A stretch of 64,000 nt of DNA from an uncultured Dehalococcoidia bacterium (lineage in GTDB: Bacteria > Chloroflexota > Dehalococcoidia > Lucifugimonadales > UBA826). This document shows positions 6,962 to 59,980 of the stretch, in pieces. Each line of letters begins with the position of its first letter. Within the stretch, counting starts at the first letter, position 1. Location: assembly GCA_964500645.1 (NCBI GenBank), contig CAZCOH010000006.1, positions 1,492 to 65,491 of the forward strand, written 5' to 3'. The position numbers were made by a program, and so were the translations under genes. The notes beneath the pieces are model-generated. The model was given only the letters and a program-made list of their open reading frames with translations. It made no database searches and was not told the origin of the DNA.

Positions 6962-6996
6962 GTATTTTTCTCCTTGAGGTGAAGGTCAGGGTGTTT

Positions 6997-8241: not shown

Positions 8242-9468
8242 TTATATAATCCTGTTCTCGGAGAGATTTTTGTATTCTTCTTCAGGCAATTGAAGAGTAT
8301 CCATATAAATTTCCTGATTATGTTGGCCAAGTAGTGGGGGAGATTCAGTCATCCATTCAGTGGTCCTTAATCTGAAAGGCGAGGTTGGGTATTTCAGTGT
8401 CCCAGCGTGTGAATGATCAATGTCTACAAAAAAATTCCTGTAGGAGTTTTGCGGGTCATTCAGGGTTTCATCAATACTCTGAACCATCGTGAACGGGACT
8501 CGTACTTCTTGCGCTAGAGTTTGTATTTCTTCCCTCGTATGGTTTGAGAGCCATGTCGTTAATAATTCATCTATCTCGTCTGCATGACCCATCATTTCTC
8601 CCAATACTTCGTCCTCGGCCAATCTTTCTGAGCCCGTGAGAAAGGCGAGACCTTCAGGGTTACTGGGAGAATAGTGGACATGCACCCATCCGTCCTTACA
8701 AGGTAACAATCGTGATGGATAGGCAGCAGAAGGTTCTCTTGCTATGAGACGTGTGCCTGCTCTTAAAGGCTCTATTCCACTTCTTTCATATGTTCGGAAA
8801 TATCCAACGCCATCAAAGGTACTTGTGAGAGATTCGGTAGCGGATACGTCTATATATTGTCCTTTGTTGCTAAATAATCTGCCTATTAACGCTGCAACAA
8901 TTGAGAGAGCACCCGATAGTCCACATTGATATTCTGATTGTCTTCCTCCTGCTTTAAGAGGCTCTCTATCTTCGTCTCCTGTTAAATACATATACCCACT
9001 CAGCGCATAAGATGTGATATCTGAACCGAGGTACTCTTTGTATGGTCCTTCCTGACCATAATGGGTCAAAGAAGCCATTACAATTTTTGGATTTAATTCA
9101 GACAGGGTTTCATATGAAATTCCTAGAGCTTTCATTGTTCCGGGGTGAAAGCTTTCCACGATAATGTCAGATGTTGAAACCAAGCCCTTGATAATTTCCA
9201 CAGCTTTGGGGTCGTATACGTCTAGAGTAACGCTTTTTTTCCCGGCATTTAAGTAGAGGAATGGGGCACTGGTTTCAATATTTGGTTCGTCGTTTAAGAA
9301 AGGGCCATATTGTCTTGTTACATCACCGGTTTCGGGGGATTCGACTTTGATTACAGTCGCTCCGAGATCCCTTAGTATTTTTGTGCAATATGAGCCAGCA
9401 TAACCTACGGATAGATCTATTACTTTCAAATTATTTAAGGCGGCTGAGCTTTCCTGAGTCACGTGCAT
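8242..9468 (-). CDS. Family-III CoA-transferase, type B1
   Basis: LKVIDLSVGYAGSYCTKILRDLGATVIKVESP, KKSVTLD and IVMASLTHYGQEGPY. Confidence 0.85.
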   Translation of the reverse strand: MHVTQESSAALNNLKVIDLSVGYAGSYCTKILRDLGATVIKVESPETGDVTRQYGPFLNDEPNIETSAPFLYLNAGKKSVTLDVYDPKAVEIIKGLVSTSDIIVESFHPGTMKALGISYETLSELNPKIVMASLTHYGQEGPYKEYLGSDITSYALSGYMYLTGDEDREPLKAGGRQSEYQCGLSGALSIVAALIGRLFSNKGQYIDVSATESLTSTFDGVGYFRTYERSGIEPLRAGTRLIAREPSAAYPSRLLPCKDGWVHVHYSPSNPEGLAFLTGSERLAEDEVLGEMMGHADEIDELLTTWLSNHTREEIQTLAQEVRVPFTMVQSIDETLNDPQNSYRNFFVDIDHSHAGTLKYPTSPFRLRTTEWMTESPPLLGQHNQEIYMDTLQLPEEEYKNLSENRII

Positions 9469-45349: not shown

Positions 45350-46807
45350 TTAACGGACTCTGTTAATTGCTTTCTTTTTAATAGAGGTCAGCATTCCTCT
45401 GAAGATAACTGCGTGAAGGGGATATAGCATTATCCAGTATAAGCACCCGAAAATAGTATTAGTATGGAATGAAGCTGTTTGTGTAAGTTTGGTTTGATTT
45501 GCAGTTTGATCCAACGTGAATGATAGTGTTGCTTTTCCTGGTAGTCTCATCTCCGCCGTTAGTTCTACCATAGCGAGGTCAATGACTTTGGAAATCCTCC
45601 ACCAGTCAAGCGTGTCACCGACGACGAACTTGTCGCTAAACATCCTAGTTCTTCTCATGCCTACTCCCCCAAGTACCAAGTCGATCCAACCTCGTATTTT
45701 CCACAGATAATTGGCGAAATACCATCCGTTTCGCCCTCCAATATTATTCAAGGTTTTGAAAATTTCCTTTTTGGTGGCCGCTAGTTCGACGTTCCTGTGA
45801 TCTTCGAATTTGTATTTATAAATAATTTCTGGTTTATTAGAGCCTTTACCACCCGAAGATAAAGCGTCAAACCATCGACTGTGACCTGTATGTTTTTCAT
45901 CAGATTTAATTGCGTATTTTATGGCTTCCCTGTATGAGATAGGATTTATATTGAAGAGGTTTTGTCCCTCTCGATCAGTAACTATGCTGTCACTGGTGAG
46001 GCTGTCTATAAGCTTTCTTCCCGCACGTGCATATGCGGGCGTCACGAGGCCTAACCAGAGACTTGATAATCTTGGGGTAAGAACCGGTACGGATATCATG
46101 GCTCTTTTGTACCCAGCTTGTCTGCCAAATTCCTTCATCAATTCTTTATAAGAAATTTGATCTGGGCCACCTATTTGTATTATTCGGTCTGTCTCCATGA
46201 CTAGCTTTATTGATTGGGCGAGATATTCAATGACATCATCTACGCCAATTGGTTGTGAAAGGGAACTTACCCATTTAGGAGTTATCATTGCAGGCAATCT
46301 TTTGACCAAACTTTGTATTATTTCGAAAGAAAGCCCTCCTGATCCAATTATTATTGAGGCTTGGAATTCTAAACAAGGTATGTCCGACGATCTCAATACG
46401 TTACCGACCTGCATTCTGCTATCTAAGTGTTGAGATAGAACATCTTCCCCAGATGCTAACCCTCCTAGATAAACGATTTTCTTCACCTTGTTCGCTACAC
46501 ACGCCTCTAGAAAATTCTTAGCGCATATCAATTCTTTTTCTCGGAAATCCTTACCAGAATTTAAAGAATGTACTAAATAATAGGCAACGTCTACGCCTTC
46601 AAAATGATTGTTAACTGTTTTCTTTTCTAACAGGTCGCATTTCCTGATATCTAAGTCAAGGAAGCTATTTTTATTCATAAGGTATTCTGGATTTCGGGCG
46701 ATACACCTGACGTTAATTGACTCTTTTGACAACCTTACTAGCAGCCTTGAACCTATATAACCAGTTGCACCCGTTAATAGAACCGTTTTTAGATGTTGAG
46801 TTTCCAT
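45350..46807 (-). CDS. NAD(P)-binding SDR (NmrA-like) fused to a DUF2867-like C-terminal domain
   Basis: VLLTGATGYIGSRLL Rossmann motif. The C-terminal 170 aa (WYFANYLWKIRGWIDLVLGGVGMRR...) matches my recollection of DUF2867. Confidence 0.65.
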   Translation of the reverse strand: METQHLKTVLLTGATGYIGSRLLVRLSKESINVRCIARNPEYLMNKNSFLDLDIRKCDLLEKKTVNNHFEGVDVAYYLVHSLNSGKDFREKELICAKNFLEACVANKVKKIVYLGGLASGEDVLSQHLDSRMQVGNVLRSSDIPCLEFQASIIIGSGGLSFEIIQSLVKRLPAMITPKWVSSLSQPIGVDDVIEYLAQSIKLVMETDRIIQIGGPDQISYKELMKEFGRQAGYKRAMISVPVLTPRLSSLWLGLVTPAYARAGRKLIDSLTSDSIVTDREGQNLFNINPISYREAIKYAIKSDEKHTGHSRWFDALSSGGKGSNKPEIIYKYKFEDHRNVELAATKKEIFKTLNNIGGRNGWYFANYLWKIRGWIDLVLGGVGMRRTRMFSDKFVVGDTLDWWRISKVIDLAMVELTAEMRLPGKATLSFTLDQTANQTKLTQTASFHTNTIFGCLYWIMLYPLHAVIFRGMLTSIKKKAINRVR

Positions 46808-46812
46808 TTTGA

Positions 46813-48225
46813 CTATTTTAGTCCCTTTTTATATTCAAATAAGGCCTTTTTTCTTGCTTCATTTAAATCCACAACGGGATTTGGGTATAGATCATCTACA
46901 ACCCTTTTACTTTTCCCGTTTGATGATCCGCGGCCTTGGTATTGCCAAGGTTCATGAATGGCCTCCATTGGCGTGCTGGATAACTCGGGTATCCATTTCT
47001 TTATGTAGCAGCCTTTTGGATCAAACTTTTTTGCTTGAATCGTCGGATTGAAAATCCTGAAATATGGTGCTGAATTTAAGCCACATCCAGTTACCCATTG
47101 CCAGTTAAATGAATTAGCAGCGAGGTCGAAATCAACTAAATAATCTTTGAAGTGATTAGCTCCATGTGTCCAATGAATTAATAGATGCTTCACCAAAAAA
47201 GAGGCACATATCATACGTGCTCTATTATCAATATTGCCGGTGAGGAGTAATTTCCTCATGGAGGCATCCACTATCGGATATCCAGTCATTCCATTCTTCC
47301 ACAGTTCTAGCTTTGTTTGATCTTCACTCCAGTTTATGTATTCAAATCTTTTGTCGATAGAGACAGTGTCCATATTAGGATTCAACTTCATGCAGTGGCG
47401 AGCGAACAGTCTCCAGCCTATTCCACGCTTTATATTTTGAATATGAGGGTATTCCTGGTTGTCGGCAAACGCATAAATTTCTTTTAAAATTTTTAATGGT
47501 TCTATTGCCCCAGCGCTTATACAGGATGACAAATCGGACCTAAAACTTGTTTCTAAAGAGATTCCTTCCTCGGACTTCAAAGGTATTTCTGAACGAAGGG
47601 AATTATTAAGATATTGTACGCCGCCAGGTTCGCAGCTTTTATTGCATGAAGTTTCGTGATTGTTCTTAAAAGAAACTTCAGTTTCTTTTAAGAAGCTAGT
47701 AAGTTTGCAGGTAATGTTTTTATTTTGGTGGTGGGGTTTTTGGGATACCCAATTTTTGAGGATAAGGGATTCCAATTGATGCCAAAAGCTTTTAAATGTT
47801 TTAAACGGTCTGTCTAAGCCTTGAATTAGAATTAATTCTGAGTTTTCTTCTACGTGTGATTGTATGCCCTCTTTAGACAAGTTTAGGCTTAGGCGATTTT
47901 CTTCATTGCGTACAAGTAAATCTGAAGATGAATTCCAATGTACGTTTCTTATTTTTCTGATTTTGCATATTTTAAGTAATGCATCCATGGAGTCGACTTC
48001 TAGGAATGAAGCCGACTCGGTGTTGCGCAACCTGTTTTCTAGACAATGTAAAGCTTTGGCCTTCCAACTTGCTACATTTTTGTTGGCATGTAGATTGAAG
48101 GGTTCATAATTCACAACTAGTATTATTTCGGATTCCTTGAACGCACTTATAATACACGGATTGTCTTCTATTCTCAGACTCTGATTTATTAGCACAATCG
48201 AGGGTATATTTGGCTCTGCCGTCAT
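46813..48225 (-). CDS. Deoxyribodipyrimidine photolyase / cryptochrome family flavoprotein
   Basis: C-terminal FAD domain TGYPIVDASMRKL...NRARMICASFLVKHLLIHW...DFDLAANSFNWQWVTGCGLNSAPYFRIFNPTIQAKKFDPKGCYIKKWIPEL. Confidence 0.85.
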   Translation of the reverse strand: MTAEPNIPSIVLINQSLRIEDNPCIISAFKESEIILVVNYEPFNLHANKNVASWKAKALHCLENRLRNTESASFLEVDSMDALLKICKIRKIRNVHWNSSSDLLVRNEENRLSLNLSKEGIQSHVEENSELILIQGLDRPFKTFKSFWHQLESLILKNWVSQKPHHQNKNITCKLTSFLKETEVSFKNNHETSCNKSCEPGGVQYLNNSLRSEIPLKSEEGISLETSFRSDLSSCISAGAIEPLKILKEIYAFADNQEYPHIQNIKRGIGWRLFARHCMKLNPNMDTVSIDKRFEYINWSEDQTKLELWKNGMTGYPIVDASMRKLLLTGNIDNRARMICASFLVKHLLIHWTHGANHFKDYLVDFDLAANSFNWQWVTGCGLNSAPYFRIFNPTIQAKKFDPKGCYIKKWIPELSSTPMEAIHEPWQYQGRGSSNGKSKRVVDDLYPNPVVDLNEARKKALFEYKKGLK

Positions 48226-49346
48226 GCTACAAGTGTTTTTTGGTCTATGTAACTAGATCTAAATCCAAGGTTCTCTTCGTGAACAATCAAGTTTGATGAA
48301 GAAGTGTTTTCTATCTGAGAAAGTGCGTTGCCTACAATTCGATCCAGTAATCTAGGGTATTCATAATATTTAGGTAGAATAACTATCTCAGCTGACTCTT
48401 TTGATGCTACGTCCATTAGTGTTTGCAAGCCGTGCTGAGGAGCTAATAATGCTTTGCAGTTAACACCTTTGTTGGTAAACCGTTCCATCTGATTTGCTAA
48501 ATGAACTCTTCCTATGTTTCTTATTGTGTTTTGGTCTAGAGGCATTTTGGTCAGCTCACCACTCCCGGGAGGACCTGGCTTTACAAAATAGGAGGCAGCA
48601 GAAATGTCATACAGCATTGCCTCTGCATTTAATTCAAGGCACATGTCTATAGCGTCGTTTATCAAAGATTCAGAAATCTCTGTTGATTCGTCAGCTGATT
48701 TATCCTGAGTGACTATGATAATTTTTTCTACGTCCCTGCCGATATTCCGTGCTATTTTTTCTGCTGTATCAGGTCCTTCAGCATTACCTAGTCTTACTGA
48801 ATCAAGATGCTGCATAAGTGATCTCACCACTCGTATGTCGGATGATGCGAATCCTTGAAATTTTTTGCCTGGGTCTGACAATTTTCCTTTAGCAAACAGG
48901 TCGTCTGAAATTTCCCAACCCACAAAAGCTATAGGTGACGGATTCTCTACTACTAGGAACCATTGATTTTCAACGTTCTCGGGGGATTCGCTGATTTTAG
49001 TCCAGTTATCTATAGCCGATGAATATTTTTCTGAAGCCTCGTTTATTCCGTAAGCGTTAATCCTAATACCCATACTACGTAATTCTTTGTAACGATTAAT
49101 TTCTTTGTCCAATTTGTCTATATTCTGAAAACCTACGTATAGTGTTACGTCGCTCGGATTTTTCTTGATTTCGTCTTCTATCTCGCGAGTTATTCCGAGC
49201 ATTTTTTTTGTGCTGTGGATGAACTCAAATCCTTCTATAGGGAGTCCGTCAGATCTAAGCGATTGGTCCATTCTCAATACCAATTCTCTGACTCCATTTT
49301 CCTCCTTTTCAGGCAGTTCTTTACTTAGTTTCCAATTGAAATACAT
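48222..49346 (-). CDS. Uncharacterised two-domain protein: N-terminal DICT-like sensor domain plus C-terminal USP-like alpha/beta domain (tentative)
   Basis: The N-terminal half has LYVGFQNIDKL..RYKEL...GIRINAYG...NQWFLVVENPSPIAFVGWE. The C-terminal half has KIIIVTQDKS...AEIVILPKYYEYPRLLDRIVGNAL...LIVHE. The stop overlaps the photolyase start (ATGA). Confidence 0.4.
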   Translation of the reverse strand: MYFNWKLSKELPEKEENGVRELVLRMDQSLRSDGLPIEGFEFIHSTKKMLGITREIEDEIKKNPSDVTLYVGFQNIDKLDKEINRYKELRSMGIRINAYGINEASEKYSSAIDNWTKISESPENVENQWFLVVENPSPIAFVGWEISDDLFAKGKLSDPGKKFQGFASSDIRVVRSLMQHLDSVRLGNAEGPDTAEKIARNIGRDVEKIIIVTQDKSADESTEISESLINDAIDMCLELNAEAMLYDISAASYFVKPGPPGSGELTKMPLDQNTIRNIGRVHLANQMERFTNKGVNCKALLAPQHGLQTLMDVASKESAEIVILPKYYEYPRLLDRIVGNALSQIENTSSSNLIVHEENLGFRSSYIDQKTLVA

Positions 49347-49700
49347 TTACTTTCCTTTTAGTACGCTTTTAAAAACTTCGATATTATTTATTTGCAAATG
49401 TGGTCCCGTGACTAACCTCGCTATAGTGCCAGGCTCAATATCAAAACCGATTCTTGCTATTACTTTCGACTCTTTTTTTATTAGGATAGTGAGTCCGAGT
49501 TTGGCGAGAATCGAGCCAAATTTTTTTATAGAGGCAAAACTTACGGGGATCTCAGAAAAACCTCTTATACTTCTGATTTCGAATTCCTTTATCTCCACCT
49601 CAATATATTTATCGTTAAATTCAATATTGCTTTTTAGGTAATCTGAATCAACTAATAATGAACCTGATACCGAAATTCCCGTTGTTTTTCTAGGTAGCAT
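49347..49700 (-). CDS. Hypothetical protein (117 aa)
   Basis: The ORF abuts the downstream start and overlaps the upstream ORF by 11 nt. No family was recognised. Confidence 0.4.
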   Translation of the reverse strand: MLPRKTTGISVSGSLLVDSDYLKSNIEFNDKYIEVEIKEFEIRSIRGFSEIPVSFASIKKFGSILAKLGLTILIKKESKVIARIGFDIEPGTIARLVTGPHLQINNIEVFKSVLKGK

Positions 49701-49917
49701 CTGGAGCTTCTGCTTTTTGAACTTCGGTGGTGCTTATACTGACCATTCCATTTATGCCCCAATCTGCTTTTTCTGAATTTTCGCCTGTGGTCTGAGGTAC
49801 TGATACCTTTAGGTCTTGGAATCGGTAATTAATGGTTGTTCCATTTCGGTTCAGAAATTCATACAGTCCTTCTGCGAGATCGATCCATGCTTTTAAAGAT
49901 GTTTTGTTAGAAGTCAT
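49690..49917 (-). CDS. Hypothetical protein (75 aa)
   Basis: The ORF lies 25 nt downstream of the zinc-ribbon ORF and is co-directional with it. No family was recognised. Confidence 0.4.
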   Translation of the reverse strand: MTSNKTSLKAWIDLAEGLYEFLNRNGTTINYRFQDLKVSVPQTTGENSEKADWGINGMVSISTTEVQKAEAPDAT

Positions 49918-49942
49918 TATTTAAGTTCCTTTATTTCGTTGA

Positions 49943-50092
49943 TTAAGCTGCTTTTTGTTTAGGTTCTTTCGTTTCTCTCGACACTATTTCTTTGAAACTT
50001 CTTCCGCACATAAGACATTTGTGTTCTATGCCCAAATGGCCGTCGAAATGAACGATATTACCCCCACATCTACTGCAATTGCCCATATGCAT
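49943..50092 (-). CDS. Small zinc-ribbon protein (49 aa), not in the ORF track
   Basis: AAGGAGGTG lies 7 nt upstream of the ATG. The protein is MHMGNCSRCGGNIVHFDGHLGIEHKCLMCGRSFKEIVSRETKEPKQKAA, with a CxxC...CxxC pattern. Confidence 0.5.
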   Translation of the reverse strand: MHMGNCSRCGGNIVHFDGHLGIEHKCLMCGRSFKEIVSRETKEPKQKAA

Positions 50093-50243
50093 ATTAATGC
50101 ACCTCCTTTACGTAATTTTCTTTATGACACAAATAATAACAATGTTTGTTAAAAAGCACAATAGTGTATTTTAAATCATTAATTACAAATAACAAAAGTC
50201 TATCTTAAGAGGTGATTGATAAAACTATTTTGATTGCTACGTG

Positions 50244-50993
50244 TTAATCAGACGAGATATTGAGGCGTCTTTTTTTACGCCATATAAATATTGATCCAGT
50301 GAAAAGGAAAATAAGAGCAATGGGGGACAAGACAGAAACATATTTAAGGTATTGAGGTTTATTTTGGGAAGTTATGTCTTTTTCTGCCAATAGAGAAGAA
50401 TGGAATTTTCTGACCTCGGTAATTGTACTCGGTAGCCTTCCCATATCCGATATCCCAAAACTCTCTTCTTTGCCTATAGCGACCCAGAGCTTACCAACCT
50501 TTATTTCGTCTTTAATGCTGACTAGGTAATAAGTACCATCTTCGGGAAGTTCCAGCGTGATTTCTCCAAAAACCCATGAATGGGTGTCTGAATAGGGTTC
50601 GTGAAATAACCTAGGGGTTTTTATTGAAGTATCAATCAATTTACTGGATGTTGAGGTAACCTCTTTTTTGGGTGAGGAGGGCTTTATTAGATATAGCGAG
50701 GGTCTGAAATCTTCTAGATCTAGTATCTTCGGTACGCCAATTTGCACATATAAATCTTCTTTTTTTGAGCCGTAAAATTTTATCCATGAAGTAGGTCTGG
50801 ATTCACTTAGTGTTTGGTAAATCGCTTTAGAAATGTGGATGTCGTTTATTGGCAACGCAGTCTCTGCCTCAAAATGTTCGTCTTTGGAAAGATAAGGGAT
50901 GTGAGCCTCTGAAGAGGTGTAGTTCATTGACACAAAGTATGCGACAGCTACAAATGTGGCGAGGAATACTTTGTGAAGGAGATTTGCTGGCAA
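50244..50993 (-). CDS. Exported protein with a C-terminal TM anchor, unknown function
   Basis: N-terminal signal-like VFLATFVAVAYFVSMNYTSSEA|HIPY. C-terminal helix VLSPIALIFLFTGSIFIW plus RKKRR. Confidence 0.5.
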   Translation of the reverse strand: MPANLLHKVFLATFVAVAYFVSMNYTSSEAHIPYLSKDEHFEAETALPINDIHISKAIYQTLSESRPTSWIKFYGSKKEDLYVQIGVPKILDLEDFRPSLYLIKPSSPKKEVTSTSSKLIDTSIKTPRLFHEPYSDTHSWVFGEITLELPEDGTYYLVSIKDEIKVGKLWVAIGKEESFGISDMGRLPSTITEVRKFHSSLLAEKDITSQNKPQYLKYVSVLSPIALIFLFTGSIFIWRKKRRLNISSD

Positions 50994-50994
50994 C

Positions 50995-51909
50995 TTACTC
51001 TCTCTTAGATGGGATTCTCAATCTATGTATAAAGCCGCGTGATGGCGATTCAAGATTATCAATATGCTTATCAGGTTTGCTATAGAAAGGGACTTTTAAG
51101 TGATGGAATAATTTATAAGCATGTTTCAGTATATTGATTTCGGTGAAAAGCACAGTTTTCATTATTGAAGGACAAATCTTCCAAAGGTTAAAATTTGTCA
51201 TTTGGACAAGCTTTGCTCTGAATAAGGTGGTGATCATTATTTCTGACCTTTGGTGAAGAGTGATCGTTATCTTTAGGTCATCAGGCGAGAGATGAAAATT
51301 GAACTCATATTCTCCAGTTCTTTCTAGAAAAGGGGATACGTGAAGTTTTTTTGACGACCAGTAATTTCCTTGAGATTGATCGAACTGAACTTCGTCAAGA
51401 TAATATAGATGAGACTCACTGAAAGTATTATTTACTTCAGCTATAACTGATTTTATATCATTGCACGAATTAACCACTAAATAGAAAACTATAGGGTTGA
51501 ATCCGTATCCAAAGACTGAAGGCGTGGTAAGTAGATATACTTTATCGTCCCTCGTAAATTGCGATGTTTTTTGGCTTAAGAAGTCCTCAATTTTTTGTTT
51601 AATAGAAGTGGTGGATTTGTCTATGTAGTTATCGTTTTTGATTGAAAGAAACCCAAATTTGGTTAATGGGAATTTCCAGCCAAAATCGCCCGTTGTAAGT
51701 AGATCTGCCTGGTCTATGAGCAACATCGTATGTGTTGACTTAAACGTGTTCTGCACTGGGTAGAACCGACTATGAATCAATTCCCCGCGAGCTATAGAGG
51801 AGTCTACTAACTTGACTATATTATTACCTCTGCGTTTATCATATCTGCCACTTGTTGACCTGACCTGAATCCATCTTCGTGAAATCCGTATCCTGTGTAG
51901 GCTCCACAA
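50995..51909 (-). CDS. DUF1365 protein (UfaO-like); start uncertain
   Basis: ARGELIHSRFYPVQNTFKSTHTMLLIDQADL and FGYGFNPIVFYLV match the DUF1365 pattern. The track TTG start overlaps the upstream gene by 94 nt. Confidence 0.7.
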   Translation of the reverse strand: MWSLHRIRISRRWIQVRSTSGRYDKRRGNNIVKLVDSSIARGELIHSRFYPVQNTFKSTHTMLLIDQADLLTTGDFGWKFPLTKFGFLSIKNDNYIDKSTTSIKQKIEDFLSQKTSQFTRDDKVYLLTTPSVFGYGFNPIVFYLVVNSCNDIKSVIAEVNNTFSESHLYYLDEVQFDQSQGNYWSSKKLHVSPFLERTGEYEFNFHLSPDDLKITITLHQRSEIMITTLFRAKLVQMTNFNLWKICPSIMKTVLFTEINILKHAYKLFHHLKVPFYSKPDKHIDNLESPSRGFIHRLRIPSKRE

Positions 51910-53072
51910 AATTTGATTGCTTTGTGAGAGTTAATACTTTGGATAACTCTAAATGATTCTTTTTCTGTCTTATCCAGTATTGGATGGCTATATTCGGTCG
52001 AGTATATAGTTTTAGTTATTTGGGGTATTTTAGGAGGATTAAGCGAAACGAAATAATTAGTTTTTGAACAAATATTTTGGAGTTTGTTCATGTAGTAAGT
52101 AATGTAGGTTGCGGACGATTCGTTGGAGTCATGTGTACGTATGACATTCCATGATGCCCATGCTCGCTTCATAGGTGGCATGAATTTTCGGTCTGTATGC
52201 AAATAAACTTTGTTTTTGGTGTATTTGAAAGATTTCAGAATGATATGTATGTTGGGAAAGTCCTTTTTTACAAGGTTGGCTGCGGTATCGGCATGTGTTG
52301 CAACAATGACCCGGTCGAATGCCTCAGACTGATTTCCATTAATCGTCAAGCTTGAGGATTCTTCACCCTTGTTTATATGAGTGACTTTGGTGTTGAGACG
52401 AATTCTCCCATTGAATGATTTTTTAAAGGATTCGATGTAGCTTATGGAGCCATCACTGATGGTTTGCCATGAAGGCCTATTCTTGACTCGGAAAAGGCCA
52501 TGGTTATTAAAAAAACTCACGTATGTTGATGCCGGTATTTTACTTGCACTTAATATGCTGCAAGACCAAATCGCAGCAGCAATGGGTAGGAAATAATCCT
52601 CGATTACATAATTTGGGCATCCAAGCATTCTAAGGTATTTGGAGATAGAATCAGAATTGCTTGGGGATATATGGCTGTTTGAAAGCTTCTTGGAGTATTT
52701 GTAAATCGCTAAAAGAGTGTGCCAGTGTCGGTATTCAAATATCTTTTTTTTGTTTGGAAATAATCCCCCAACGGAACCTGCATAACAAGTATTATTTACT
52801 TCATCATGAAAAGAGAAAGACATATTAGATGGGTTTCTGTCTATACCTAGTTTTTCTAAAAATTCATTGAAGAGGGGATAATTTTTTTCATTGAATACTA
52901 TGAAGCCTGTGTCTATGTATCTTATTGTACGATCAATATCTTTTGTGATTACGGTGTTTGTATGTCCACCTAGGCGGTCTTGTTCTTCAAATAAAGTCAC
53001 ACGGTGGAGGCCTTGTAAATTGAATGCCGCAGAAATGCCAGAGATTCCGCTTCCTATTACCGCTATTTTCAT
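51816..53072 (-). CDS. FAD-dependent amine-oxidase/desaturase-like oxidoreductase (UfaD-like)
   Basis: Dinucleotide fold MKIAVIGSGISGISAAFNL...LFEEQDRLGGHTNT and C-terminal FCGAYTGYGFHEDG. Confidence 0.8.
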   Translation of the reverse strand: MKIAVIGSGISGISAAFNLQGLHRVTLFEEQDRLGGHTNTVITKDIDRTIRYIDTGFIVFNEKNYPLFNEFLEKLGIDRNPSNMSFSFHDEVNNTCYAGSVGGLFPNKKKIFEYRHWHTLLAIYKYSKKLSNSHISPSNSDSISKYLRMLGCPNYVIEDYFLPIAAAIWSCSILSASKIPASTYVSFFNNHGLFRVKNRPSWQTISDGSISYIESFKKSFNGRIRLNTKVTHINKGEESSSLTINGNQSEAFDRVIVATHADTAANLVKKDFPNIHIILKSFKYTKNKVYLHTDRKFMPPMKRAWASWNVIRTHDSNESSATYITYYMNKLQNICSKTNYFVSLNPPKIPQITKTIYSTEYSHPILDKTEKESFRVIQSINSHKAIKFCGAYTGYGFHEDGFRSGQQVADMINAEVII

Positions 53073-53079
53073 AATGACT

Positions 53080-54108
53080 CTAATTTCTCTTTTTAAAAAG
53101 GTAGTGAATTATGTACCATTCACCGCCGTCTCTGTAATTGAATAGCTCGGAGCAAAAAATTAGAAATAGCTTGTAACGATTGAAATGCTTTGCTCTTTCT
53201 TTTCCATAACCGTTCTCATCCATGTCTCTTAATATGATCTTTTTATTCAATTTGAAATTACTTAACCAGGATTCCAGACTCCGGTGATAATTGTGGCCAG
53301 ATAATTTCCAGACCTCAATGTTTTCAAGGTTAGAATTTAGTTTTTTATAAAACCCGTCATATGGCATCATTCCTCCTGTAAAGAAATTTTTCGACATCCA
53401 GGAGGTTTTTTGGTTATCGAAATACTGCGGGTACACTTTATGTGAGAAAACCTGAATAAATAAGGTTCCCCTCGAATTTAGCCAACCGTCTATTCTACTC
53501 ATTAAGGTTTTGGGGTTCCTGATATGTTCGAACATTTCAATAGAAATTATTCGATCATACTTACGCGTAGGTACATATTGATTGATATCGCATTTCACAA
53601 CTTCTAGGTTGTATAAATTTTGTTGAGAAGCCTTTTGCTCTATGTATTGTTTTTGGGTTGTAGAGTTTGTAACTGCTGTTACAAACGTTTTTTTATATAA
53701 GCTTGCAATTTCTAGCGATAAAGATCCCCATCCGCATCCTAGTTCCAAAACTGAATCACCGTCTGCAATACGACATTTATTGATGTAGTTTCGTAGTGTT
53801 TGAAAGTCTGCTTCCTTTAGGTCGTAAGAGTCACTGGACCATTCTGAGCCACTGTATTTCATGGAAGGACCTAAAAAGTATTCGTACACTGAGGAACTCA
53901 TCTCATAGTGTTGGTGATTCGCCTCTTCAGTATTAATGGCTATTTCTGAATTTGAAGAGGTTAATTTGAATGCTTGTCTTATCTTATGCAGTTCGTTATT
54001 GCTGAGTTCTAAAATTCTAGATTCATATTTTTTTAGTCCCAGGCGGACAAACAACCTTAGTACACGTTCAGGAACCAACCCGCTGTCTATGATTGACTCA
54101 TACCACAT
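53080..54108 (-). CDS. CFA-synthase-family SAM-dependent methyltransferase (second paralog)
   Basis: HYEMSSSVYEYFLGPSMKYS, SAM motif VLELGCGWGSL, and ISIEMFEHI. Confidence 0.8.
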   Translation of the reverse strand: MWYESIIDSGLVPERVLRLFVRLGLKKYESRILELSNNELHKIRQAFKLTSSNSEIAINTEEANHQHYEMSSSVYEYFLGPSMKYSGSEWSSDSYDLKEADFQTLRNYINKCRIADGDSVLELGCGWGSLSLEIASLYKKTFVTAVTNSTTQKQYIEQKASQQNLYNLEVVKCDINQYVPTRKYDRIISIEMFEHIRNPKTLMSRIDGWLNSRGTLFIQVFSHKVYPQYFDNQKTSWMSKNFFTGGMMPYDGFYKKLNSNLENIEVWKLSGHNYHRSLESWLSNFKLNKKIILRDMDENGYGKERAKHFNRYKLFLIFCSELFNYRDGGEWYIIHYLFKKRN

Positions 54109-54112
54109 GTCG

Positions 54113-55303
54113 TTATTTCTTCTTAAAGGAGAATTGAAAATTACTTATGTGACCTGACTTAAACGCACCTGCACAATATGAAAAATAGTAGAAAAAACGT
54201 CGGTAGTCATTATCATCGAATCCTAAGTCATGAATAAGTTGCCGGTTTTTTTCTAGGGTTTTCTGCCAAGTAATCAACGTCTTTGGATAATGACTACCGA
54301 TCTCGCTTTCTCTGTATATCTCAAATCCACAATCCGAAGCTGACTGCTTTATTAGTCCGGTTGGAAGTAGGAGTCCTCCGGGGAATATGTATTTTTGAAT
54401 GAAGTCACAATTTTTTCTATACGATTCGTATCTTTCATCTGGTATTGTTATAACTTGGAGTTGTAGGGTGCCATCAGTCCTAAGTAATGTGGCACATTTA
54501 GAGAAAAAATCACTGATTCCTTTGTGGCCAATCGCTTCTACCATTTCCACGGAGAAAATATGATCATATTTTCCGGATAAGTCTCTGTAATCCAGTAATT
54601 GGATGTCTATTGCATCATTAAGCCCAAGGTTTGCGAATTTTCCTTTGCTGTAATTGTGCTGGCTTTCAGAAAGAGTAATAGCTGAAACTTTTGCCCCGTA
54701 GTCCGATGCAGCAATTATTGGGAGGTTACCCCAGCCGGAACCGATATCAAGGATATGGTCATCAGCCTTCACAGGAGCAGACTTCATCATCACATTGATT
54801 TTTTCGGCTTGTGCCTCTTCTAAGGAATCGGAAGTCTCGTTATAGATCGCGCAGGAGTATGTAAGAGAGGGGTCCAAAAAGCAGGAAAAAAATTCGTTAC
54901 TAATGTCGTAATGGGATTTTATGTTGTTTCTGGATTGTTTTCTTGTGTTACGGACTCTAAAGGATTGAATAATTTTAGAATAAATTTTCAGAGGGGCAAT
55001 TTTTGAAATAAGTTGACGTTTCTCTTGCCCTGACGTTATGGAAATATATTCAAATAATTCTGTTAAATCAGAGTGAGTCCATTTGCCGTCGATATATGAC
55101 TTTGCGAAACCCAAATCATAGCCGTATACAAGGTCAGTAAAAAAAGACCAATCATTCACCTGTATTGGATCTACGGATCTATTGCCGTTATCGAATACGT
55201 GACGAATCCCATCTGGTGTCGTTATAGGAATGCCTGCTTTACTAAAGTTAGATAGGACTTTTTTGTAAAGTAGCTTTCCGATATACGTACTAATAGTATT
55301 CAA
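54113..55303 (-). CDS. Cyclopropane-fatty-acyl-phospholipid-synthase-family methyltransferase
   Basis: HYDISNEFFSCFLDPSLTYSCAIY, ILDIGSGWGNL, SVEMVEAIG and FIQKYIFPGG. Confidence 0.8.
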   Translation of the reverse strand: MNTISTYIGKLLYKKVLSNFSKAGIPITTPDGIRHVFDNGNRSVDPIQVNDWSFFTDLVYGYDLGFAKSYIDGKWTHSDLTELFEYISITSGQEKRQLISKIAPLKIYSKIIQSFRVRNTRKQSRNNIKSHYDISNEFFSCFLDPSLTYSCAIYNETSDSLEEAQAEKINVMMKSAPVKADDHILDIGSGWGNLPIIAASDYGAKVSAITLSESQHNYSKGKFANLGLNDAIDIQLLDYRDLSGKYDHIFSVEMVEAIGHKGISDFFSKCATLLRTDGTLQLQVITIPDERYESYRKNCDFIQKYIFPGGLLLPTGLIKQSASDCGFEIYRESEIGSHYPKTLITWQKTLEKNRQLIHDLGFDDNDYRRFFYYFSYCAGAFKSGHISNFQFSFKKK

Positions 55304-56395
55304 CTAAAGACTCTGTAATTTAATTTTCGTAGGTTCCTGAGAGAAATCTTTTAAATAACCCTCAATGTTCATTTTTTCCGTAACCCATCTTTTTAGGATG
55401 GTCCTAAATCTGTACTCTATAAGCTCGGGGAATGTCATTGGACTCAGACCTTCGCTCGACTCTAGGCCCAAATGTTCTAATACTATTTCTCCGACTAAGC
55501 CGTGGCCACCTCTGATGTTTCCAAGCGCCTTTGAGACAAAAACGTTTGGGACGTATCTTAGAAACCTTTTTTCCTTCAAGGAAGCGTATCCTACAATCAA
55601 TTCACCGAGTTTTGCTTTGTCTTGAAGCATTTCGTTAATATTTCCTATTATTCGTACTAAAAGTGCCGTAATGTCCCCATTCATTCTAGGTATCCATTTT
55701 TGAGTTTTGGACTCTATATTTGCGACCAAAGGTATGTGGTTTGAAGGCATTTGAAAGTTTGATATGGCGTGGGTTATCTGTTTCATTAACCCGGGATCTG
55801 ATTCAAGTTGTATAGCAGTTAAATTTCTGAACTGAACTGTGTGTAGGGCTTCTCTCCCTTTGACTTTGCTAAGAATCTTAGTAGTGTTACTTTCCTCGGG
55901 GAAAAATCCACGTTGAAGTTCGTACCAATAGTCTGTTATGCATTCCTGTATCATTCCGTAGGTGGTAAGTTCAATAGGGTGATATCCAGAGCTATGAACC
56001 TCCTGATAAGATACACTGTCGAATGCTTCCTGAACCTGTTGTTCAAGTTCCGATTTATCAATACCGAAGTCTACTAAGATATTTTTAAACGGGTCGGCAT
56101 GTCCTCTTTCATCCGGGGCCCAAAATCCCGTGACATAGTTGCTTAGCCAGAATGCACCATGATCTTTAGCTCCTGCTAAGTAGGTGTCTGCGTATTGTTC
56201 AGTTAAGGATTCGGTGATAAAAGAAAGCTTGAAAGTGTCCACTAGGTCTGAGGCAGACATCTTACTCTGAGCAATAATTTCTTCTGGTTTATAGGTCTCA
56301 AACATTGAATCTAAGTCACTTTGATTTACTGTTTGTAACTTAGGTATTTGTTTGTTTACGTACGACTCCAGTATTTTGGTCGTTACATCATCCAT
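55304..56395 (-). CDS. Ferritin-like diiron protein resembling soluble acyl-ACP desaturases
   Basis: The pattern is E...ExxH...E...ExxH: SLTEQY, WAPDERGHAD (compare WTAEENRHGD of acyl-ACP desaturases), IQECITDYW and GREALHTVQF. Confidence 0.5.
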   Translation of the reverse strand: MDDVTTKILESYVNKQIPKLQTVNQSDLDSMFETYKPEEIIAQSKMSASDLVDTFKLSFITESLTEQYADTYLAGAKDHGAFWLSNYVTGFWAPDERGHADPFKNILVDFGIDKSELEQQVQEAFDSVSYQEVHSSGYHPIELTTYGMIQECITDYWYELQRGFFPEESNTTKILSKVKGREALHTVQFRNLTAIQLESDPGLMKQITHAISNFQMPSNHIPLVANIESKTQKWIPRMNGDITALLVRIIGNINEMLQDKAKLGELIVGYASLKEKRFLRYVPNVFVSKALGNIRGGHGLVGEIVLEHLGLESSEGLSPMTFPELIEYRFRTILKRWVTEKMNIEGYLKDFSQEPTKIKLQSL

Positions 56396-56419
56396 TAGTG
56401 TTTATTCCTGATTAGTCTT

Positions 56420-56899
56420 CTATTTACATCTGGATTCAAAATCTTTTGCCTTAGAAAGTATGGTTCCGTAGTCAGGAGCGTCACCAGGGTGTTTTCCAAC
56501 CCACTCAAATAACACATGACCTTCAGAATCGGTAAAGAAAACTGCTCTATTTGCCGACCTATAGTTCTCTACTCCTCCAAGCCCCTTAAATTCGACTTCA
56601 AATTGATCTATTAAACGTAGTTCATGATCACTTAGAAGGTCAAAATCGATTGCGTAATCATTCTTCCATTTTTCTAATACGAAGGTGGAATCCACGGTTA
56701 TTCCTGTAACTTTTGTGATTCCGGGATCAAGCTCATCCAAGTACAGGTTGAATTCTGTGAGTCCTAAATTGCATAAATCTGTGAAAGCTCCCGGGAAGAA
56801 GCAGACGATGTTTAAAGGAAAATCTGTATCAATTACAGGACGGGATTTTCGATTTTGATTATATAAATGTATTGGATCAATTTGCTTTCCAATTACCAT
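56420..56899 (-). CDS. Peroxiredoxin-like (AhpC/TSA, BCP-type) protein
   Basis: Universal PxxxTxxC motif as PGAFTDLC. The size of about 160 aa fits a thioredoxin fold. Confidence 0.65.
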   Translation of the reverse strand: MVIGKQIDPIHLYNQNRKSRPVIDTDFPLNIVCFFPGAFTDLCNLGLTEFNLYLDELDPGITKVTGITVDSTFVLEKWKNDYAIDFDLLSDHELRLIDQFEVEFKGLGGVENYRSANRAVFFTDSEGHVLFEWVGKHPGDAPDYGTILSKAKDFESRCK

Positions 56900-56914
56900 G
56901 TTTTAAACCTCTTT

Positions 56915-57454
56915 CTAAGTTTTGTGAAAAAAAATGACCCATAAAATTGCATCCATAATGAGACAGTGAAATGTTATGGCAGCTAGTCCTGCAAGCGCCA
57001 CAATTTTTTCCGTAGACGAAAAATCACTGCCGTCGTAAGTTGCCACACCCAAACATAAAAGTATAAGAGACAATGCCGTAATCCACAAAACTACAACGGT
57101 TAATATCCACCAAAAGTTGCTTCCTGAAATTATGTAAGTCAGCAAAAATGGCATCCAGCAGGCTGCTGATAACAAGAAAATAGCAGCAAGAATCGTTATT
57201 GAATGATTTCCAAGTAGCCAGTCATGACTGAAATGCGTCGCCCCGTCCTTAAATACTGCCATGTAACAAAACATTAAGTAGCCAATTGCGGCTATCAACA
57301 TTGATACAACAATTGCTTGTCGCCAGCTCGCACTTACTCCGCCCCACAAAGAATTTCTGTGTTCTGGGAAGTTTCCTATGCCAATAGCATACCCCCCTAA
57401 AACCAAGATGCCGCCAATGATGTTTACTAAAATGAAAGTCATCTGTGGGGACAT
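56915..57454 (-). CDS. Hypothetical membrane protein (about 5 TM), first gene of the long minus-strand cluster
   Basis: Hydrophobic helices. SD TGGAGT lies 9 nt upstream of the ATG. Confidence 0.5.
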   Translation of the reverse strand: MSPQMTFILVNIIGGILVLGGYAIGIGNFPEHRNSLWGGVSASWRQAIVVSMLIAAIGYLMFCYMAVFKDGATHFSHDWLLGNHSITILAAIFLLSAACWMPFLLTYIISGSNFWWILTVVVLWITALSLILLCLGVATYDGSDFSSTEKIVALAGLAAITFHCLIMDAILWVIFFHKT

Positions 57455-57494
57455 TTTTCTACTCCAAAAAGTGAGGTGAATTTTTAAAAGGTAT

Positions 57495-57512
57495 ATGTGT
57501 TATGATACACAT
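57495..57512. promoter_or_regulatory. Inverted repeat ATGTGT-TATGAT-ACACAT in the divergent promoter region (candidate operator overlapping a -10-like hexamer)
   Basis: The 6-bp arms are perfect and the 6-bp spacer TATGAT resembles a -10 box. It lies about 41 nt upstream of the start at 57454 and 149 nt upstream of the start at 57661. Confidence 0.25.
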
Positions 57513-57660
57513 GAGATTGCTTAAACACAAACAAATGGTTTTCCAATTATCTGGTTTAGTAACTGCTTGAATAAAGTGATTGAGACGCAGTAGACAAGCT
57601 ATAAGGCCAGAAACTGACGCATAAACATAGTTAGGTAGAGTAAAGGATCCAGAAGTACAT

Positions 57661-59091
57661 ATGAACGTTTTGATGGTAGGTAGCACCGGGTTTATAGGTA
57701 GAGCCACCCTTGCTTATTTACAGGGGAAAGGACACCGTGTAGCAGCGTGGGTTAGAGATTCTGAAAAAGCAAGAGATCTGTTAGGTGAAGGGATTAGAAT
57801 TCTCGGACCATTTGTAAACCCGACGGACCTTAGAAAAGAATTGGAATGGGCAGACTGTGTTGTGAATCTTGCCGGGAGACCTTTGGCCGGGGTGAGATGG
57901 ACCAAAAAAAAGAAGAAAGATTTTGAGGACAGTAGAATTGGATTAACCAACATCATTACTGAGGAAATCTCGAATTGCCAAAATCCTCCTAGTGTGTTCG
58001 TGTCAGCGAGCGCGGTTGGGTACTATGGAGATCGAGGATCGGAAGTTCTTACGGAAAGATCATCAAAAGGTGAAGATTATCTTTCCGATCTCTGCTCCAG
58101 TTGGGAAGAATCTGCGCATAAGGCAGAAAAATATGGGGTGAGGGTATGCACCTTAAGATTGGGGATAGTTTTGGGCAGGGAAGGCGGAATACTTAAACAA
58201 GTATTACCGGGATTTGAAATGGGTCTTGGAACTTACACTGGGGATGGTAACCAGCAACTATCATGGATACATCTTGCGGACGTGGCACGAGCTATAGAAT
58301 TTTGTATTTCTGATGAACGGGTCACAGGCCCGGTGAATATTACCTCTCCCAAACCTAGCACTAGCAAGCAATTTGCCTTAGAACTTGGTAGTGTGACAAA
58401 TGCGAAGATTGTACTTCCAATCGGATCTTTTCCTCTAAGAGTGATTTTCGGTGAAGGAGCCACGGTACTAACGAATAGTCAAAAAGCTATTCCACAAAAA
58501 TTGCAAGACCTTGGATTCGAATTTATCTACACAAGTTTGAATGATGTTTTCAAAGACGAAGTAACCCCTGATTCTGTGATTATTCAAAGGGTCAAAGATC
58601 ATGATTTGCTCCCTAAAGGAATTAAGGGGGATTACATATTAGAAACCGAAGTCTCTTTAAAAACTGGTTCTGAAGAGACTTTCGGGTTTTTCTCCTCACC
58701 GCTCAATCTGGGTCTATCTACTCCTTCTTGGGTCGGATTTAAAATAAAAGAAATGCCTAATGAGGTGAGAGAAGGTTCAGTAATTACATATCGTATTAAA
58801 GTTGGACCTATCCCACTGAAATGGAAGACGGTTATATGGGAATGGAATCCCAACGACTCATTTATTGATTTTCAGGAAAAAGGTCCGTACAAAGTGTGGC
58901 ATCACGAACATGAAATCATACCCAATGGACCTGGCGCCTCTATTATGAAGGATTCAGTCACATACACCATACCGGGAGGGCTTGTGGGCAGAATAATTCA
59001 TTCTATTTTCATAAAGAAAACTCTAATCCGTATATTTGGGTATAGAAGAAGGGTAATTCAACTGAGGTTCGAGAGGGAAATATATGCCTAG
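57661..59091 (+). CDS. TIGR01777/SDR39U1-type epimerase-family protein (with DUF1731) fused to a C-terminal SRPBCC domain
   Basis: MNVLMVGSTGFIGRA; SQKAIPQKLQDLGFEFIY (DUF1731-like); C-terminal GPYKVWHHEHEI...DSVTYTIPGGLVGRII...IFGYRRRVI. Confidence 0.75.
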   Translation: MNVLMVGSTGFIGRATLAYLQGKGHRVAAWVRDSEKARDLLGEGIRILGPFVNPTDLRKELEWADCVVNLAGRPLAGVRWTKKKKKDFEDSRIGLTNIITEEISNCQNPPSVFVSASAVGYYGDRGSEVLTERSSKGEDYLSDLCSSWEESAHKAEKYGVRVCTLRLGIVLGREGGILKQVLPGFEMGLGTYTGDGNQQLSWIHLADVARAIEFCISDERVTGPVNITSPKPSTSKQFALELGSVTNAKIVLPIGSFPLRVIFGEGATVLTNSQKAIPQKLQDLGFEFIYTSLNDVFKDEVTPDSVIIQRVKDHDLLPKGIKGDYILETEVSLKTGSEETFGFFSSPLNLGLSTPSWVGFKIKEMPNEVREGSVITYRIKVGPIPLKWKTVIWEWNPNDSFIDFQEKGPYKVWHHEHEIIPNGPGASIMKDSVTYTIPGGLVGRIIHSIFIKKTLIRIFGYRRRVIQLRFEREIYA

Positions 59092-59980
59092 TAAGAGCAA
59101 TGATGAAAAAGATTTACTAACAAACAAAATATGTGAAGAATTAGTAGAGGCGATGTTGGAGGCGGATAGAAATCGCTGTGAGTCCCTTATAGAAGGAGCT
59201 TTACTTAATAATTTGACGCCAGTTCAGATTTTTGATTCTGTAATTTCAGTCGCTCTTAACCGGATTGGGGCACTATGGCACAAAGGATCTATTACTATTG
59301 CTCACGAGCACGGTGCAAGTGAGATAGCACAGAATCTTATTGATTTTGTTTCTGATAAAACTCCTCATTTATCATCAAATGGCCTTACTGCTGTAGTGGC
59401 GGGAGTGGAGGGGGAACAACATGTTTTGGGCGCCAAGTTCTTTTCCGCCTTGCTGGAAGTGGAGGGATGGATTGTGCACTATTTAGGTTCCTCATTACCC
59501 AGTGATGATCTGGTGCAATATGTCGTTGAAAAAAACGTAGATGCGATTGTGCTGACTATAGTTCTACCTGACAATATTGATCATGCAGAACAATGCCTAA
59601 AAAAATTGCAGAAATTAGACTCTCCCCCGGTTGTGTTAGTTGGAGGTGGGGCTGTGATAGGAAAGGAACTAGAAGGAGCTGTAGTTGCAGAGAATTTGGT
59701 GTCTGGTCTCACCTTGCTAGAGTCAAATTTTGGAATGGGTAGTTCTATGTTCACACTAGACGACATTCTTTTGGGTATAGGACAAAACATACAAGACATT
59801 AGAAAATCTAGAGGCATGAATCAGGGTCAATTAGCCGAGGCAGCAGGCGTTGATAGAGCGTACATAAGTTTAGTTGAAAATGGTAAACAGAACCTGACAT
59901 TAGCTGCTTTAGTAAGGCTATCAGAAGCATTGTCGGTTCCCGTATCTGGAGTCATACCTGTTTCCACCTATAGACGTTGA
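59084..59980 (+). CDS. Cobalamin-binding (CarH-like photosensory signature) protein with a C-terminal XRE-family HTH
   Basis: W65-x9-E75-H76 (ALWHKGSITIAHEH), E111-x-H113-x-x-G116 (GEQHVLG), and a Rossmann-like B12 domain. The C-terminal HTH_3 is RGMNQGQLAEAAGVDRAYISLVENGKQNLTLAALVRLSEAL. The ATG overlaps the upstream stop by 8 nt. Confidence 0.8.
   Translation: MPSKSNDEKDLLTNKICEELVEAMLEADRNRCESLIEGALLNNLTPVQIFDSVISVALNRIGALWHKGSITIAHEHGASEIAQNLIDFVSDKTPHLSSNGLTAVVAGVEGEQHVLGAKFFSALLEVEGWIVHYLGSSLPSDDLVQYVVEKNVDAIVLTIVLPDNIDHAEQCLKKLQKLDSPPVVLVGGGAVIGKELEGAVVAENLVSGLTLLESNFGMGSSMFTLDDILLGIGQNIQDIRKSRGMNQGQLAEAAGVDRAYISLVENGKQNLTLAALVRLSEALSVPVSGVIPVSTYRR

Follow-up and report, generated by a model that had tools for sequence, protein, structure and literature searches.

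To our knowledge, every B12 photoreceptor with demonstrated DNA binding uses a MerR domain for it. In CarH, W131, E141 and H142 cap the adenosyl group of adenosylcobalamin (AdoCbl), H177 is the lower cobalt ligand, and H132 becomes the upper ligand in the light state (PMC9304148). The photocobilins too bind AdoCbl and respond to light, as established by experiment, and they signal through a conformational change without dissociation (PMC10979010). Of the 37 proteobacterial transcription factors with a B12 domain in a census from 2012, 35 had MerR, and the census is silent on XRE (PMC3532121); complex B12-domain architectures are known from genomes, without experimental evidence (PMC10979010). 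Here, we consider a gene on a 64-kb stretch of contig CAZCOH010000006.1 from an uncultured Dehalococcoidia bacterium of the marine SAR202 group (the window, at its full length), whose product carries two B12-binding domains followed by a C-terminal helix-turn-helix (HTH) of the XRE/Cro-C1 type. We call it the CBD-XRE regulator (CBD, cobalamin-binding domain), and we lean towards reading it as a one-component, AdoCbl-dependent light sensor and repressor.

The domain composition is clear (Table 1). All three Pfam matches exceed their gathering scores, PF01381 with 49.8 bits against a cut-off of 23, and this HTH_3 is the sole DNA-binding domain, as no MerR-type model in Pfam or NCBIfam matches the regulator; likewise, neither Pfam nor the AlphaFold model places a globin domain after residue 190, where a linker and the HTH are found. 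In a sequence search of the PDB, it is the HTH that matches the structures of C.BclI, C.AhdI and SinR. The AlphaFold2 model, built on 42 relatives (mean pLDDT 87.8), lays out a four-helix bundle at residues 4-92 (helices 4-25, 29-41, 46-66 and 72-92), a Rossmann domain at 102-215, a less confident linker at 216-224 and a five-helix HTH at 225-283. An earlier note on this DNA, made from the sequence alone, had described a CarH-like signature in a helical bundle and a Rossmann-like B12 domain, wired in reversed order to a non-MerR HTH; both motifs lie at the residues and nucleotides it gave, the three families it proposed to search all match, and the order of the domains is as it described.

The residues that matter in CarH are also present. 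HMMER pairs W65, H66, E75, H76, H113 and G128 of the regulator with W131, H132, E141, H142, H177 and G192 of CarH-Tt, so that the histidine following the tryptophan of the Wx9EH motif, H66, is the counterpart of the upper cobalt ligand of light-state CarH. An H132A exchange at that ligand slows the light response of CarH. The lower-ligand motif, defined as D/E-x-H-x2-G/P-x41-S-x-T/V-x22-27-G-G (PMC9304148), occurs in its extended form as E111-x-H113-x2-G116-x41-T158-x-V160-x26-G187-G188 (counted by hand), with T158 standing where the usual residue is Ser, as it is in 33 of the 42 relatives.

Comparison with solved structures points the same way. Searching the PDB by sequence puts the photocobilins SasPcob and AbPcob first (8J2W/X/Y; E 1e-19 to 1e-12), followed by the Chloracidobacterium MerR-CBD protein 8JBS and Thermus CarH (5C8A/5C8D/8C31; E ~1e-9), with corrinoid proteins, MetH and AerR ranking lower; across the sensor domain the score is 74 bits to photocobilins versus 40 bits to CarH, and identity to CarH is only 24-28%. 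Foldseek against the PDB gives the same set of photoreceptors, in which the sensor domains of CarH and 8JBS reach target-normalised template-modelling (TM) scores of 0.72-0.83, and the AlphaFold comparison with CarH that the earlier note had suggested gives a TM of 0.72-0.80 to the CarH CBD. Among NCBIfam models, the CarH equivalog NF052513 ranks first; it aligns to the sensor region only and scores 75.3 bits, below its equivalog cut-off of 400, and the corrinoid-protein and MetH models score lower than this equivalog. A methyltransferase corrinoid protein, as the domain-level JGI label 'MtbC1' might suggest, was considered and rejected, because the scores stay below the cut-offs (TIGR02370, 55 versus 215; MtbC, 44 versus 350) and the neighbourhood holds no corrinoid methyltransferase genes. 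Residues 112 and 137 of the regulator occupy the positions of the R176-D201 dimer salt bridge of CarH, and they co-vary among the 42 relatives (R-E in 12 sequences, K-E in 1, N/T-D in 19), which is consistent with a CarH-like head-to-tail dimer, though the pattern is lineage-correlated.

Conservation extends from close to remote relatives. Across the 42 closer sequences (33-90% identity), W65, E75, E111, H113, G128 and G187/G188 are invariant, H66, H74 and H76 are each conserved in at least 90% (H76 in 39 of 42, or 93%), and the HTH recognition region AGVDRAYISLVENGKQNLT is almost invariant across the family. In an alignment of 92 diverse members (26-43% identity), W65, E75 and G188 are again invariant, together with R240, Q247, E265, G267 and N270 of the HTH, and H76 and H113 are each kept in at least 90%; judged from these alignments, the occurrence and conservation of the motifs is far beyond chance. 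Could the sensor nonetheless be a permanent dimerisation module, in a B12-independent repressor whose signal arrives through an antirepressor, a lipid peroxidation product or some other partner? Myxococcus CarA provides the precedent (PMC9304148), and conserved Zn-ribbon and DICT-domain proteins encoded nearby could be partners. However, the Trp of Wx9EH is lost in CarA, whereas the regulator family keeps W65, E75, H113 and, with few exceptions, H76 over a wide divergence, which argues for selection on cofactor binding, and we consider a CarA-like protein very unlikely.

The family is large. A word-indexed search gave ~65 clusters at 90% identity, all with the same architecture and 289-303 amino acids long, from SAR202 and Dehalococcoidia metagenome-assembled genomes (MAGs) and Tara samples; MFL2784463.1, a 'B12-binding domain-containing protein' from a Dehalococcoidia MAG, is identical to the window protein. 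For a wider census, 1.84 billion representatives were searched exhaustively with a hidden Markov model (HMM) and the best 150 matches were taken, all with E <1e-49: these are mostly 276-329 amino acids long, a few are truncated, and the profile span (~10-293) takes in sensor and HTH. They add at least 145 further clusters at 50% identity with the CBD-XRE architecture, of whose 145 representatives 120 have Wx9EH and 45 the W-H pair. Named members point to MAGs of Chloroflexota, Planctomycetota and Acidobacteriota, and these best 150 matches come from uncultured genomes only, with no cultured organism among them. Database names are generic throughout ('helix-turn-helix domain-containing protein', 'B12-binding domain-containing protein', 'MtbC1/XRE family regulator', 'cobalamin-dependent protein'). 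The claim of a new architecture in the earlier note thus needs dividing: the arrangement is uncharacterised in the literature found, but it is far from unique to this genome. For the comparison of loci, one scan of the GTDB species representatives yielded 27 loci with full-length relatives (L001-L027), of which L001-L018 belong to SAR202 (42-95% identity to the window protein).

What would such a regulator bind? The intergenic regions between the gene for a short-chain dehydrogenase/reductase (SDR) that precedes the regulator and the divergent membrane-protein gene are otherwise unalignable between related loci, and share a 14-bp element with the consensus TGTGYTATAATACA. All 17 comparable intergenic regions contain the degenerate pattern TGTNNNATNNTACA when one mismatch is allowed; in the window the pattern has a single match, at the predicted main operator, a count not above chance (0.68 expected per window). 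A position weight matrix (PWM) built from the sites is more discriminating, scoring the main operator at 20.1 versus 10.8 for the next-best position in the window, and in each SAR202 locus its top score falls in the same intergenic region. A repeat search of this region had missed the operator because its arms are short, and the palindrome emerged only from the cross-species comparison. The stretch 57455-57660, which the earlier note had put forward for EMSA, holds the sole strong window copy of the palindrome, which keeps its place in 17 related genomes.

The position of the element is telling. With TG at positions 3-4 and TATAAT at 6-11, it contains an extended -10 box (TG-n-TATAAT) directed towards the SDR-regulator operon (TGtTATGAT in the window copy), and the predicted promoter of that operon consists of this extended -10 box only; the opposite strand reads TATCAT, plausibly the -10 for the lipid operon 45 nt away. 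The most informative positions are G2 and C13; like T1, A12 and A14, these fall outside the -10 box and are mirror-symmetric, and we therefore interpret the element as an operator with two-fold symmetry over the -10 region. Across loci, the PWM profile peaks sharply at exactly 20 nt to either side of the strong site: a clear second site lies 20 bp upstream in six loci (in L009, for instance, TGTTCCATAATACA-N6-TGTGTTATAGTACA), and a weaker +20 site is present in several. A spacing of two helical turns is compatible with a dimer of dimers that binds cooperatively.

We also considered that the palindrome is a mere promoter element, or the site of another regulator, with the CBD-XRE protein acting elsewhere. 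The TGnTATAAT embedded in the motif is what one would expect in that case, but the invariant T1-G2 and A12-C13-A14 fall outside it, the upstream partner sites (TGTTCCATAATACA) carry the TGT/ACA arms in 20-bp phase without the TG extension, and regulator and site co-occur in every locus. Moreover, L019-L021, a subfamily at 35% identity, pair a slightly changed recognition helix (RTYISAVE versus RAYISLVE) with a different perfect 14-bp palindrome, T[CA]GAATATATTC[GT]A, ~170 nt upstream of the regulator. Either of these roles for the palindrome therefore seems to us highly improbable.

The SAR202 operator PWM finds no site beside the regulators of L019-L027, and operator-like sequences of other types were seen beside more remote regulators. 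In L081 (7958-7972) the sequence TGTGTATGATATACA is of the TGT...ACA type with a different spacing, and L024-L026 (L024 ~4280-4340) and L083 (~1945-1970) have TGTAGATTA-type inverted repeats (TGTAGA type); operator spacing seems, from these sequences, to vary between subfamilies.

The genes around the operator suggest what is controlled. Neighbouring genes were assigned with Pfam and NCBIfam. The regulator ATG overlaps the stop codon of the SDR gene (...TATGCCTAG), and a ribosome-binding site, GAGAGGGA, lies 5 nt before it; throughout L001-L018 the regulator directly follows this SDR gene. The SDR protein has an extra C-terminal domain of ~175 amino acids (residues ~300-476), a fusion kept in all SAR202 loci, for which Pfam gives no match even at E up to 1, leaving the idea of an SRPBCC domain unconfirmed. 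Facing this pair is an operon that encodes, in order, a membrane protein, an AhpC/TSA peroxiredoxin, a diiron-desaturase-like protein, two methylases resembling CMAS/cyclopropane fatty acid (CFA) synthase, a UfaD-like enzyme of the flavin adenine dinucleotide (FAD) amine-oxidase family, a DUF1365 (UfaO-like) protein and a 249-residue exported protein. The same lipid operon is faced by the SDR-regulator pair in nearly all L001-L018 loci long enough to show it, and across ~18 SAR202 species it often includes the peroxiredoxin. In Rhodobacter, UfaM (a CFA-synthase-like methylase), UfaD (an FAD desaturase) and UfaO (DUF1365) make furan fatty acids, which protect against singlet oxygen, and their genes belong to the sigmaE-ChrR regulon (PMC7380195). 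We infer that the lipid genes of the window are orthologous to UfaM, UfaD and UfaO.

The photolyase genes form a transcription unit of their own, 7 kb away and beyond a 540-nt gap after the lipid operon. The candidate site upstream of it has a PWM score of 9.3, among the top 8 in the window; L012 and L013 have better palindromes 70-80 nt upstream of the homologous Zn-ribbon gene, and L009 has a degenerate one. These matches make the operon a possible second member of the regulon. The earlier note had spoken of one facing photolyase/furan-lipid cluster under the control of the regulator, and of this the lipid/peroxiredoxin half stands, as that operon does face the regulator, whereas the photolyase half is remote and preceded by a weak, degenerate element. 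In L019-L021, the regulator lies ~1.3 kb upstream of a 117-residue open reading frame (ORF), the DICT and photolyase genes, SDR-DUF2867 and a YfcH-like SDR. Clusters of a similar kind also adjoin distant members from other lineages: L023, a Bdellovibrionota MAG, has the order amine oxidase, regulator, DUF1295, CMAS, and a metagenomic member at 27% identity (P0197) the order DUF1295, DUF1475, regulator, SDR-DUF2867, lipocalin. No obvious light-related neighbours were found in P0242, P0226 and L022.

Perhaps the protein senses cobalamin supply or the redox state of cobalt rather than light, with cofactor loading alone setting DNA binding and linking the regulon to B12 status or to oxidative state. 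The B12-binding domains are real by Pfam, corrinoid-protein models match too, albeit below their cut-offs, and some relatives come from dim, deep water. Yet the conserved neighbourhood lacks genes for B12 transport, salvage or B12-dependent enzymes, and holds instead photolyase, peroxiredoxin and lipid genes of the singlet-oxygen type. No Rfam family scores above its gathering threshold in the window, which therefore has no cobalamin riboswitch, transfer RNA or known small RNA, and the adenosyl-specific Wx9EH is conserved. Indeed, a switch that depends on AdoCbl would be light-responsive in any case, given the intrinsic photolability of the protein-bound cofactor, and a pure B12 or redox sensor strikes us as unlikely.

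Table 1. Features discussed in the text; positions refer to the window unless a locus is named.
Feature	Position	Strand	Basis or remark
CBD-XRE regulator gene	59084..59980	+	ORF, product of 298 amino acids
B12-binding_2 (PF02607), four-helix-bundle cap	59132..59344 (residues 17-87)	+	Pfam E 3.5e-14
B12-binding (PF02310), Rossmann-type cobalamin domain	59387..59653 (residues 102-190)	+	Pfam E 2.2e-13
HTH_3 (PF01381), C-terminal XRE/Cro-C1	59789..59947 (residues 236-288)	+	Pfam E 3.6e-13
Wx9EH adenosyl-capping motif W65-H66-x8-E75-H76 (WHKGSITIAHEH)	59276..59311	+	regular expression on the translation
E111-Q-H113-V-L-G116 (EQHVLG)	59414..59431	+	regular expression on the translation
Predicted main operator TGTGTTATGATACA, TGT-N8-ACA palindrome	57496..57509		cross-species comparison, PWM
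Possible weak auxiliary site ATTGCTTAAACACA	57516..57529		20 bp downstream of the main operator; PWM -2.7
Candidate secondary operator TGTATTTTAAATCA, degenerate right arm	50165..50178		73 nt upstream of the Zn-ribbon ORF that heads the photolyase operon
YfcH/TIGR01777-family SDR (DUF1731)	57661..59091	+	first gene of the regulator's own operon, translationally coupled to the regulator
Divergent lipid/peroxiredoxin operon	50244..57454	-	Pfam, NCBIfam, synteny
Photolyase operon	45350..50092	-	Zn-ribbon ORF, 75-residue ORF, 117-residue ORF, DICT-domain protein, photolyase, SDR-DUF2867
Palindrome copies in L019-L021	L019 9819-9832; L020 9814-9827; L021 5250-5263		

Several observations concern individual neighbours. 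The desaturase-like gene (55304-56395, minus strand) is the most conserved of the divergent operon, at 55-60% identity across SAR202; the sole family match of its product is a sub-threshold one to FA_desaturase_2 (acyl-ACP desaturase; 18.7 bits), with none in NCBIfam, and it may be an undescribed diiron lipid-modifying enzyme. The DUF1365 ORF (50995-51909) overlaps the end of the amine-oxidase gene (51816-53072, minus strand) by 94 nt and probably begins at a later codon, as the L001 homologue is called at 270 amino acids. Two ORFs of the photolyase operon are unannotated, both on the minus strand: a 49-residue Zn-ribbon ORF (CxxC...CxxC; 49943-50092), which heads the operon behind the operator-like element, and a 75-residue ORF with the motif AWIDLAEGLYEFLNR (49690-49917); both are kept beside the cluster in L009, L012, L013 and L019. 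The 374-residue protein encoded at 48222-49346 (minus strand) has an N-terminal DICT sensory domain and no family match in its C-terminal two-thirds, is conserved with photolyase in L019-L021, and may contribute a second sensor or regulator to the light response. In L006, an inserted gene for 790 residues (6027-8557) separates the membrane-protein gene from the SDR-regulator pair; two operator-like sites with a 20-bp offset, at 6085 and 6105, remain beside the membrane-protein gene, with a further one at 6396. Just upstream of the operator region of L003 (~8340-8400 of contig CAYWYV010000021), a stretch of over 20 consecutive G that leads into C-rich sequence looks like an assembly or sequencing artefact. 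The G+C content of the window is 40.9%.

Taken as an AdoCbl-dependent light sensor and repressor, the regulator could work as follows. In the dark, AdoCbl would be held between the four-helix bundle and the Rossmann domain, with W65, E75 and H76 capping the adenosyl group and H113 as the lower cobalt ligand. Loaded sensor domains would pair head to tail as in CarH, bringing two XRE HTHs into a two-fold arrangement that would fit the 14-bp palindrome, and where a second site lies 20 bp off, two dimers would probably bind together. Because the predicted operator covers the -10 of divergent promoters, binding would block both the SDR-regulator operon and the facing lipid/peroxiredoxin operon, and the weaker site may put the photolyase operon under the same control. 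Near-UV to green light would then break the Co-C bond, with H66 becoming the upper ligand; the bundle would shift, the oligomer dissociate and the monomers leave the DNA, and the photoprotective genes would be expressed from their presumed transcription start sites.

The logic may also differ: the light state could be the one that binds or activates, or a stable dark dimer could change only its conformation, as in photocobilins. The sensor does score nearer to photocobilins than to CarH, photocobilins signal without falling apart (PMC10979010), and XRE proteins can be activators. Against this, an operator on the -10 box, as predicted, is in the classic position for a repressor, and photoprotective genes are expected to be on, not off, in light. 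A B12 photoreceptor of such different logic is thus possible, and in our view improbable.

A number of observations weigh against the light-sensing repressor that we favour. The +20 site of the window is weak, at -2.7 versus a background 95th percentile of -1.1, as is the operator-like site of the photolyase operon. The main operator embeds a near-consensus extended -10 (TGnTATAAT), so that part of its conservation could be promoter conservation, and a simple sigma-70/terminator scan of 57300-57800 found neither a complete sigma-70 promoter nor a terminator. Position 76 is N in 3 of the 42 relatives, one of which (P0063) additionally has A66 and S74, and ~25 of the 145 remote representatives have no Wx9EH; with these residues altered or absent, some family members may be light-insensitive like CarA. 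Light is also very dim hundreds of metres down, where several relatives were sampled (L004, for example, is a single cell from 505 m). Whether the CBD-XRE proteins make up a widespread and as yet uncharacterised class of one-component photoreceptor-repressors using AdoCbl, known by hundreds of clusters from uncultured Chloroflexota (SAR202), Planctomycetota, Acidobacteriota and Bdellovibrionota only, and which in SAR202 switches on furan/cyclopropane-type lipid remodelling, peroxiredoxin and photolyase in light, is to our minds an evenly balanced question.

If true, the implications would be several. An independent fusion to XRE in the reverse order would mean that the AdoCbl sensor is a portable module for light-dependent oligomerisation in nature, as it is in synthetic biology. 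In the dark and twilight ocean, SAR202 ranks among the bacterial groups of highest abundance, and the regulator would provide a testable molecular handle on light sensing in this and other uncultured marine lineages, whilst linking B12, a scarce and traded vitamin of the ocean, to membrane photoprotection. A 14-bp palindrome and a C-terminal HTH would also make a compact new green-light-controlled repressor/operator pair for optogenetics. With its predicted operator, regulon and key residues, the hypothesis can be tested with one recombinant protein.

How does the regulator compare with known systems? A full-text literature search returned no description of a regulator combining B12-binding and XRE domains, although reviews of such architectures may mention one, and a literature search on LitR/photolyase/cyclopropane returned nothing. 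Modularity of the sensor is to be expected; the XRE fusion, the reversed order, the predicted palindromic operator and the predicted SAR202 regulon appear to be undescribed. The closest solved sensors, by sequence and by Foldseek, are those of the photocobilins (SasPcob, 8J2W; AbDPcob, 8J2Y), which share Wx9EH and continue into a C-terminal biliverdin-binding photoglobin with an enzymatic or protein-protein output, where the regulator has a DNA-binding HTH instead. AerR/PpaA share the B12-binding_2 and B12-binding fold and a role in light-responsive gene regulation, but lack a DNA-binding domain and act on CrtJ/PpsR, whereas the regulator family keeps HTH_3 throughout. AerR/PpaA sense photolysed hydroxocobalamin (OH-Cbl).

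At the DNA-binding end, the likeness is to XRE repressors such as lambda/434 cI, SinR, C.AhdI and DdrO, with which the regulator shares the HTH_3 fold and, by prediction, a 14-bp two-fold operator over a promoter; as in these repressors, the predicted operator is near the protein's own gene, with TGT-N8-ACA in its own promoter region at 17 of 17 loci. In both, paired operators suggest cooperative binding, and the DNA-binding domain relies on a separate oligomerisation module, a dependence that we predict for the regulator. In cI, SinR and DdrO that module is C-terminal and protease-sensitive or partner-binding, whereas in the regulator it would be the N-terminal cobalamin photoreceptor domain. 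At the level of the gene set, the predicted regulon is of the same type as the sigmaE-ChrR system of Rhodobacter and the proteobacterial MerR/LitR photolyase-cfa clusters, with a CFA-synthase-like methylase, UfaD, DUF1365 (UfaO), SDRs, DUF1295 and photolyase in common; those are controlled by an extracytoplasmic function (ECF) sigma/anti-sigma pair or by MerR, in contrast to the one-component B12/XRE protein found here.

Finally, the CarH/LitR regulators of Myxococcus, Thermus and Bacillus have the same two-subdomain sensor, with Wx9EH, the Trp-His pair, E-x-H-x2-G and the equivalent of the CarH glycine G192, and a co-varying pair at the R176/D201 positions is common to both. The logic we predict for the regulator is also theirs: a dark repressor of photoprotective genes, acting at a promoter-overlapping operator with multiple phased sites. 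However, their MerR winged helix is N-terminal, whereas the regulator has an XRE/Cro-type HTH at its C-terminus, and their targets are carotenoid genes, rather than the lipid-modification, peroxiredoxin and photolyase genes predicted here. The operator of CarH-Tt consists of tandem 11-bp direct repeats, as opposed to the 14-bp palindrome predicted for the regulator. With MerR absent, and a score below the equivalog cut-off, we place the regulator outside the CarH family, though it would work like CarH.

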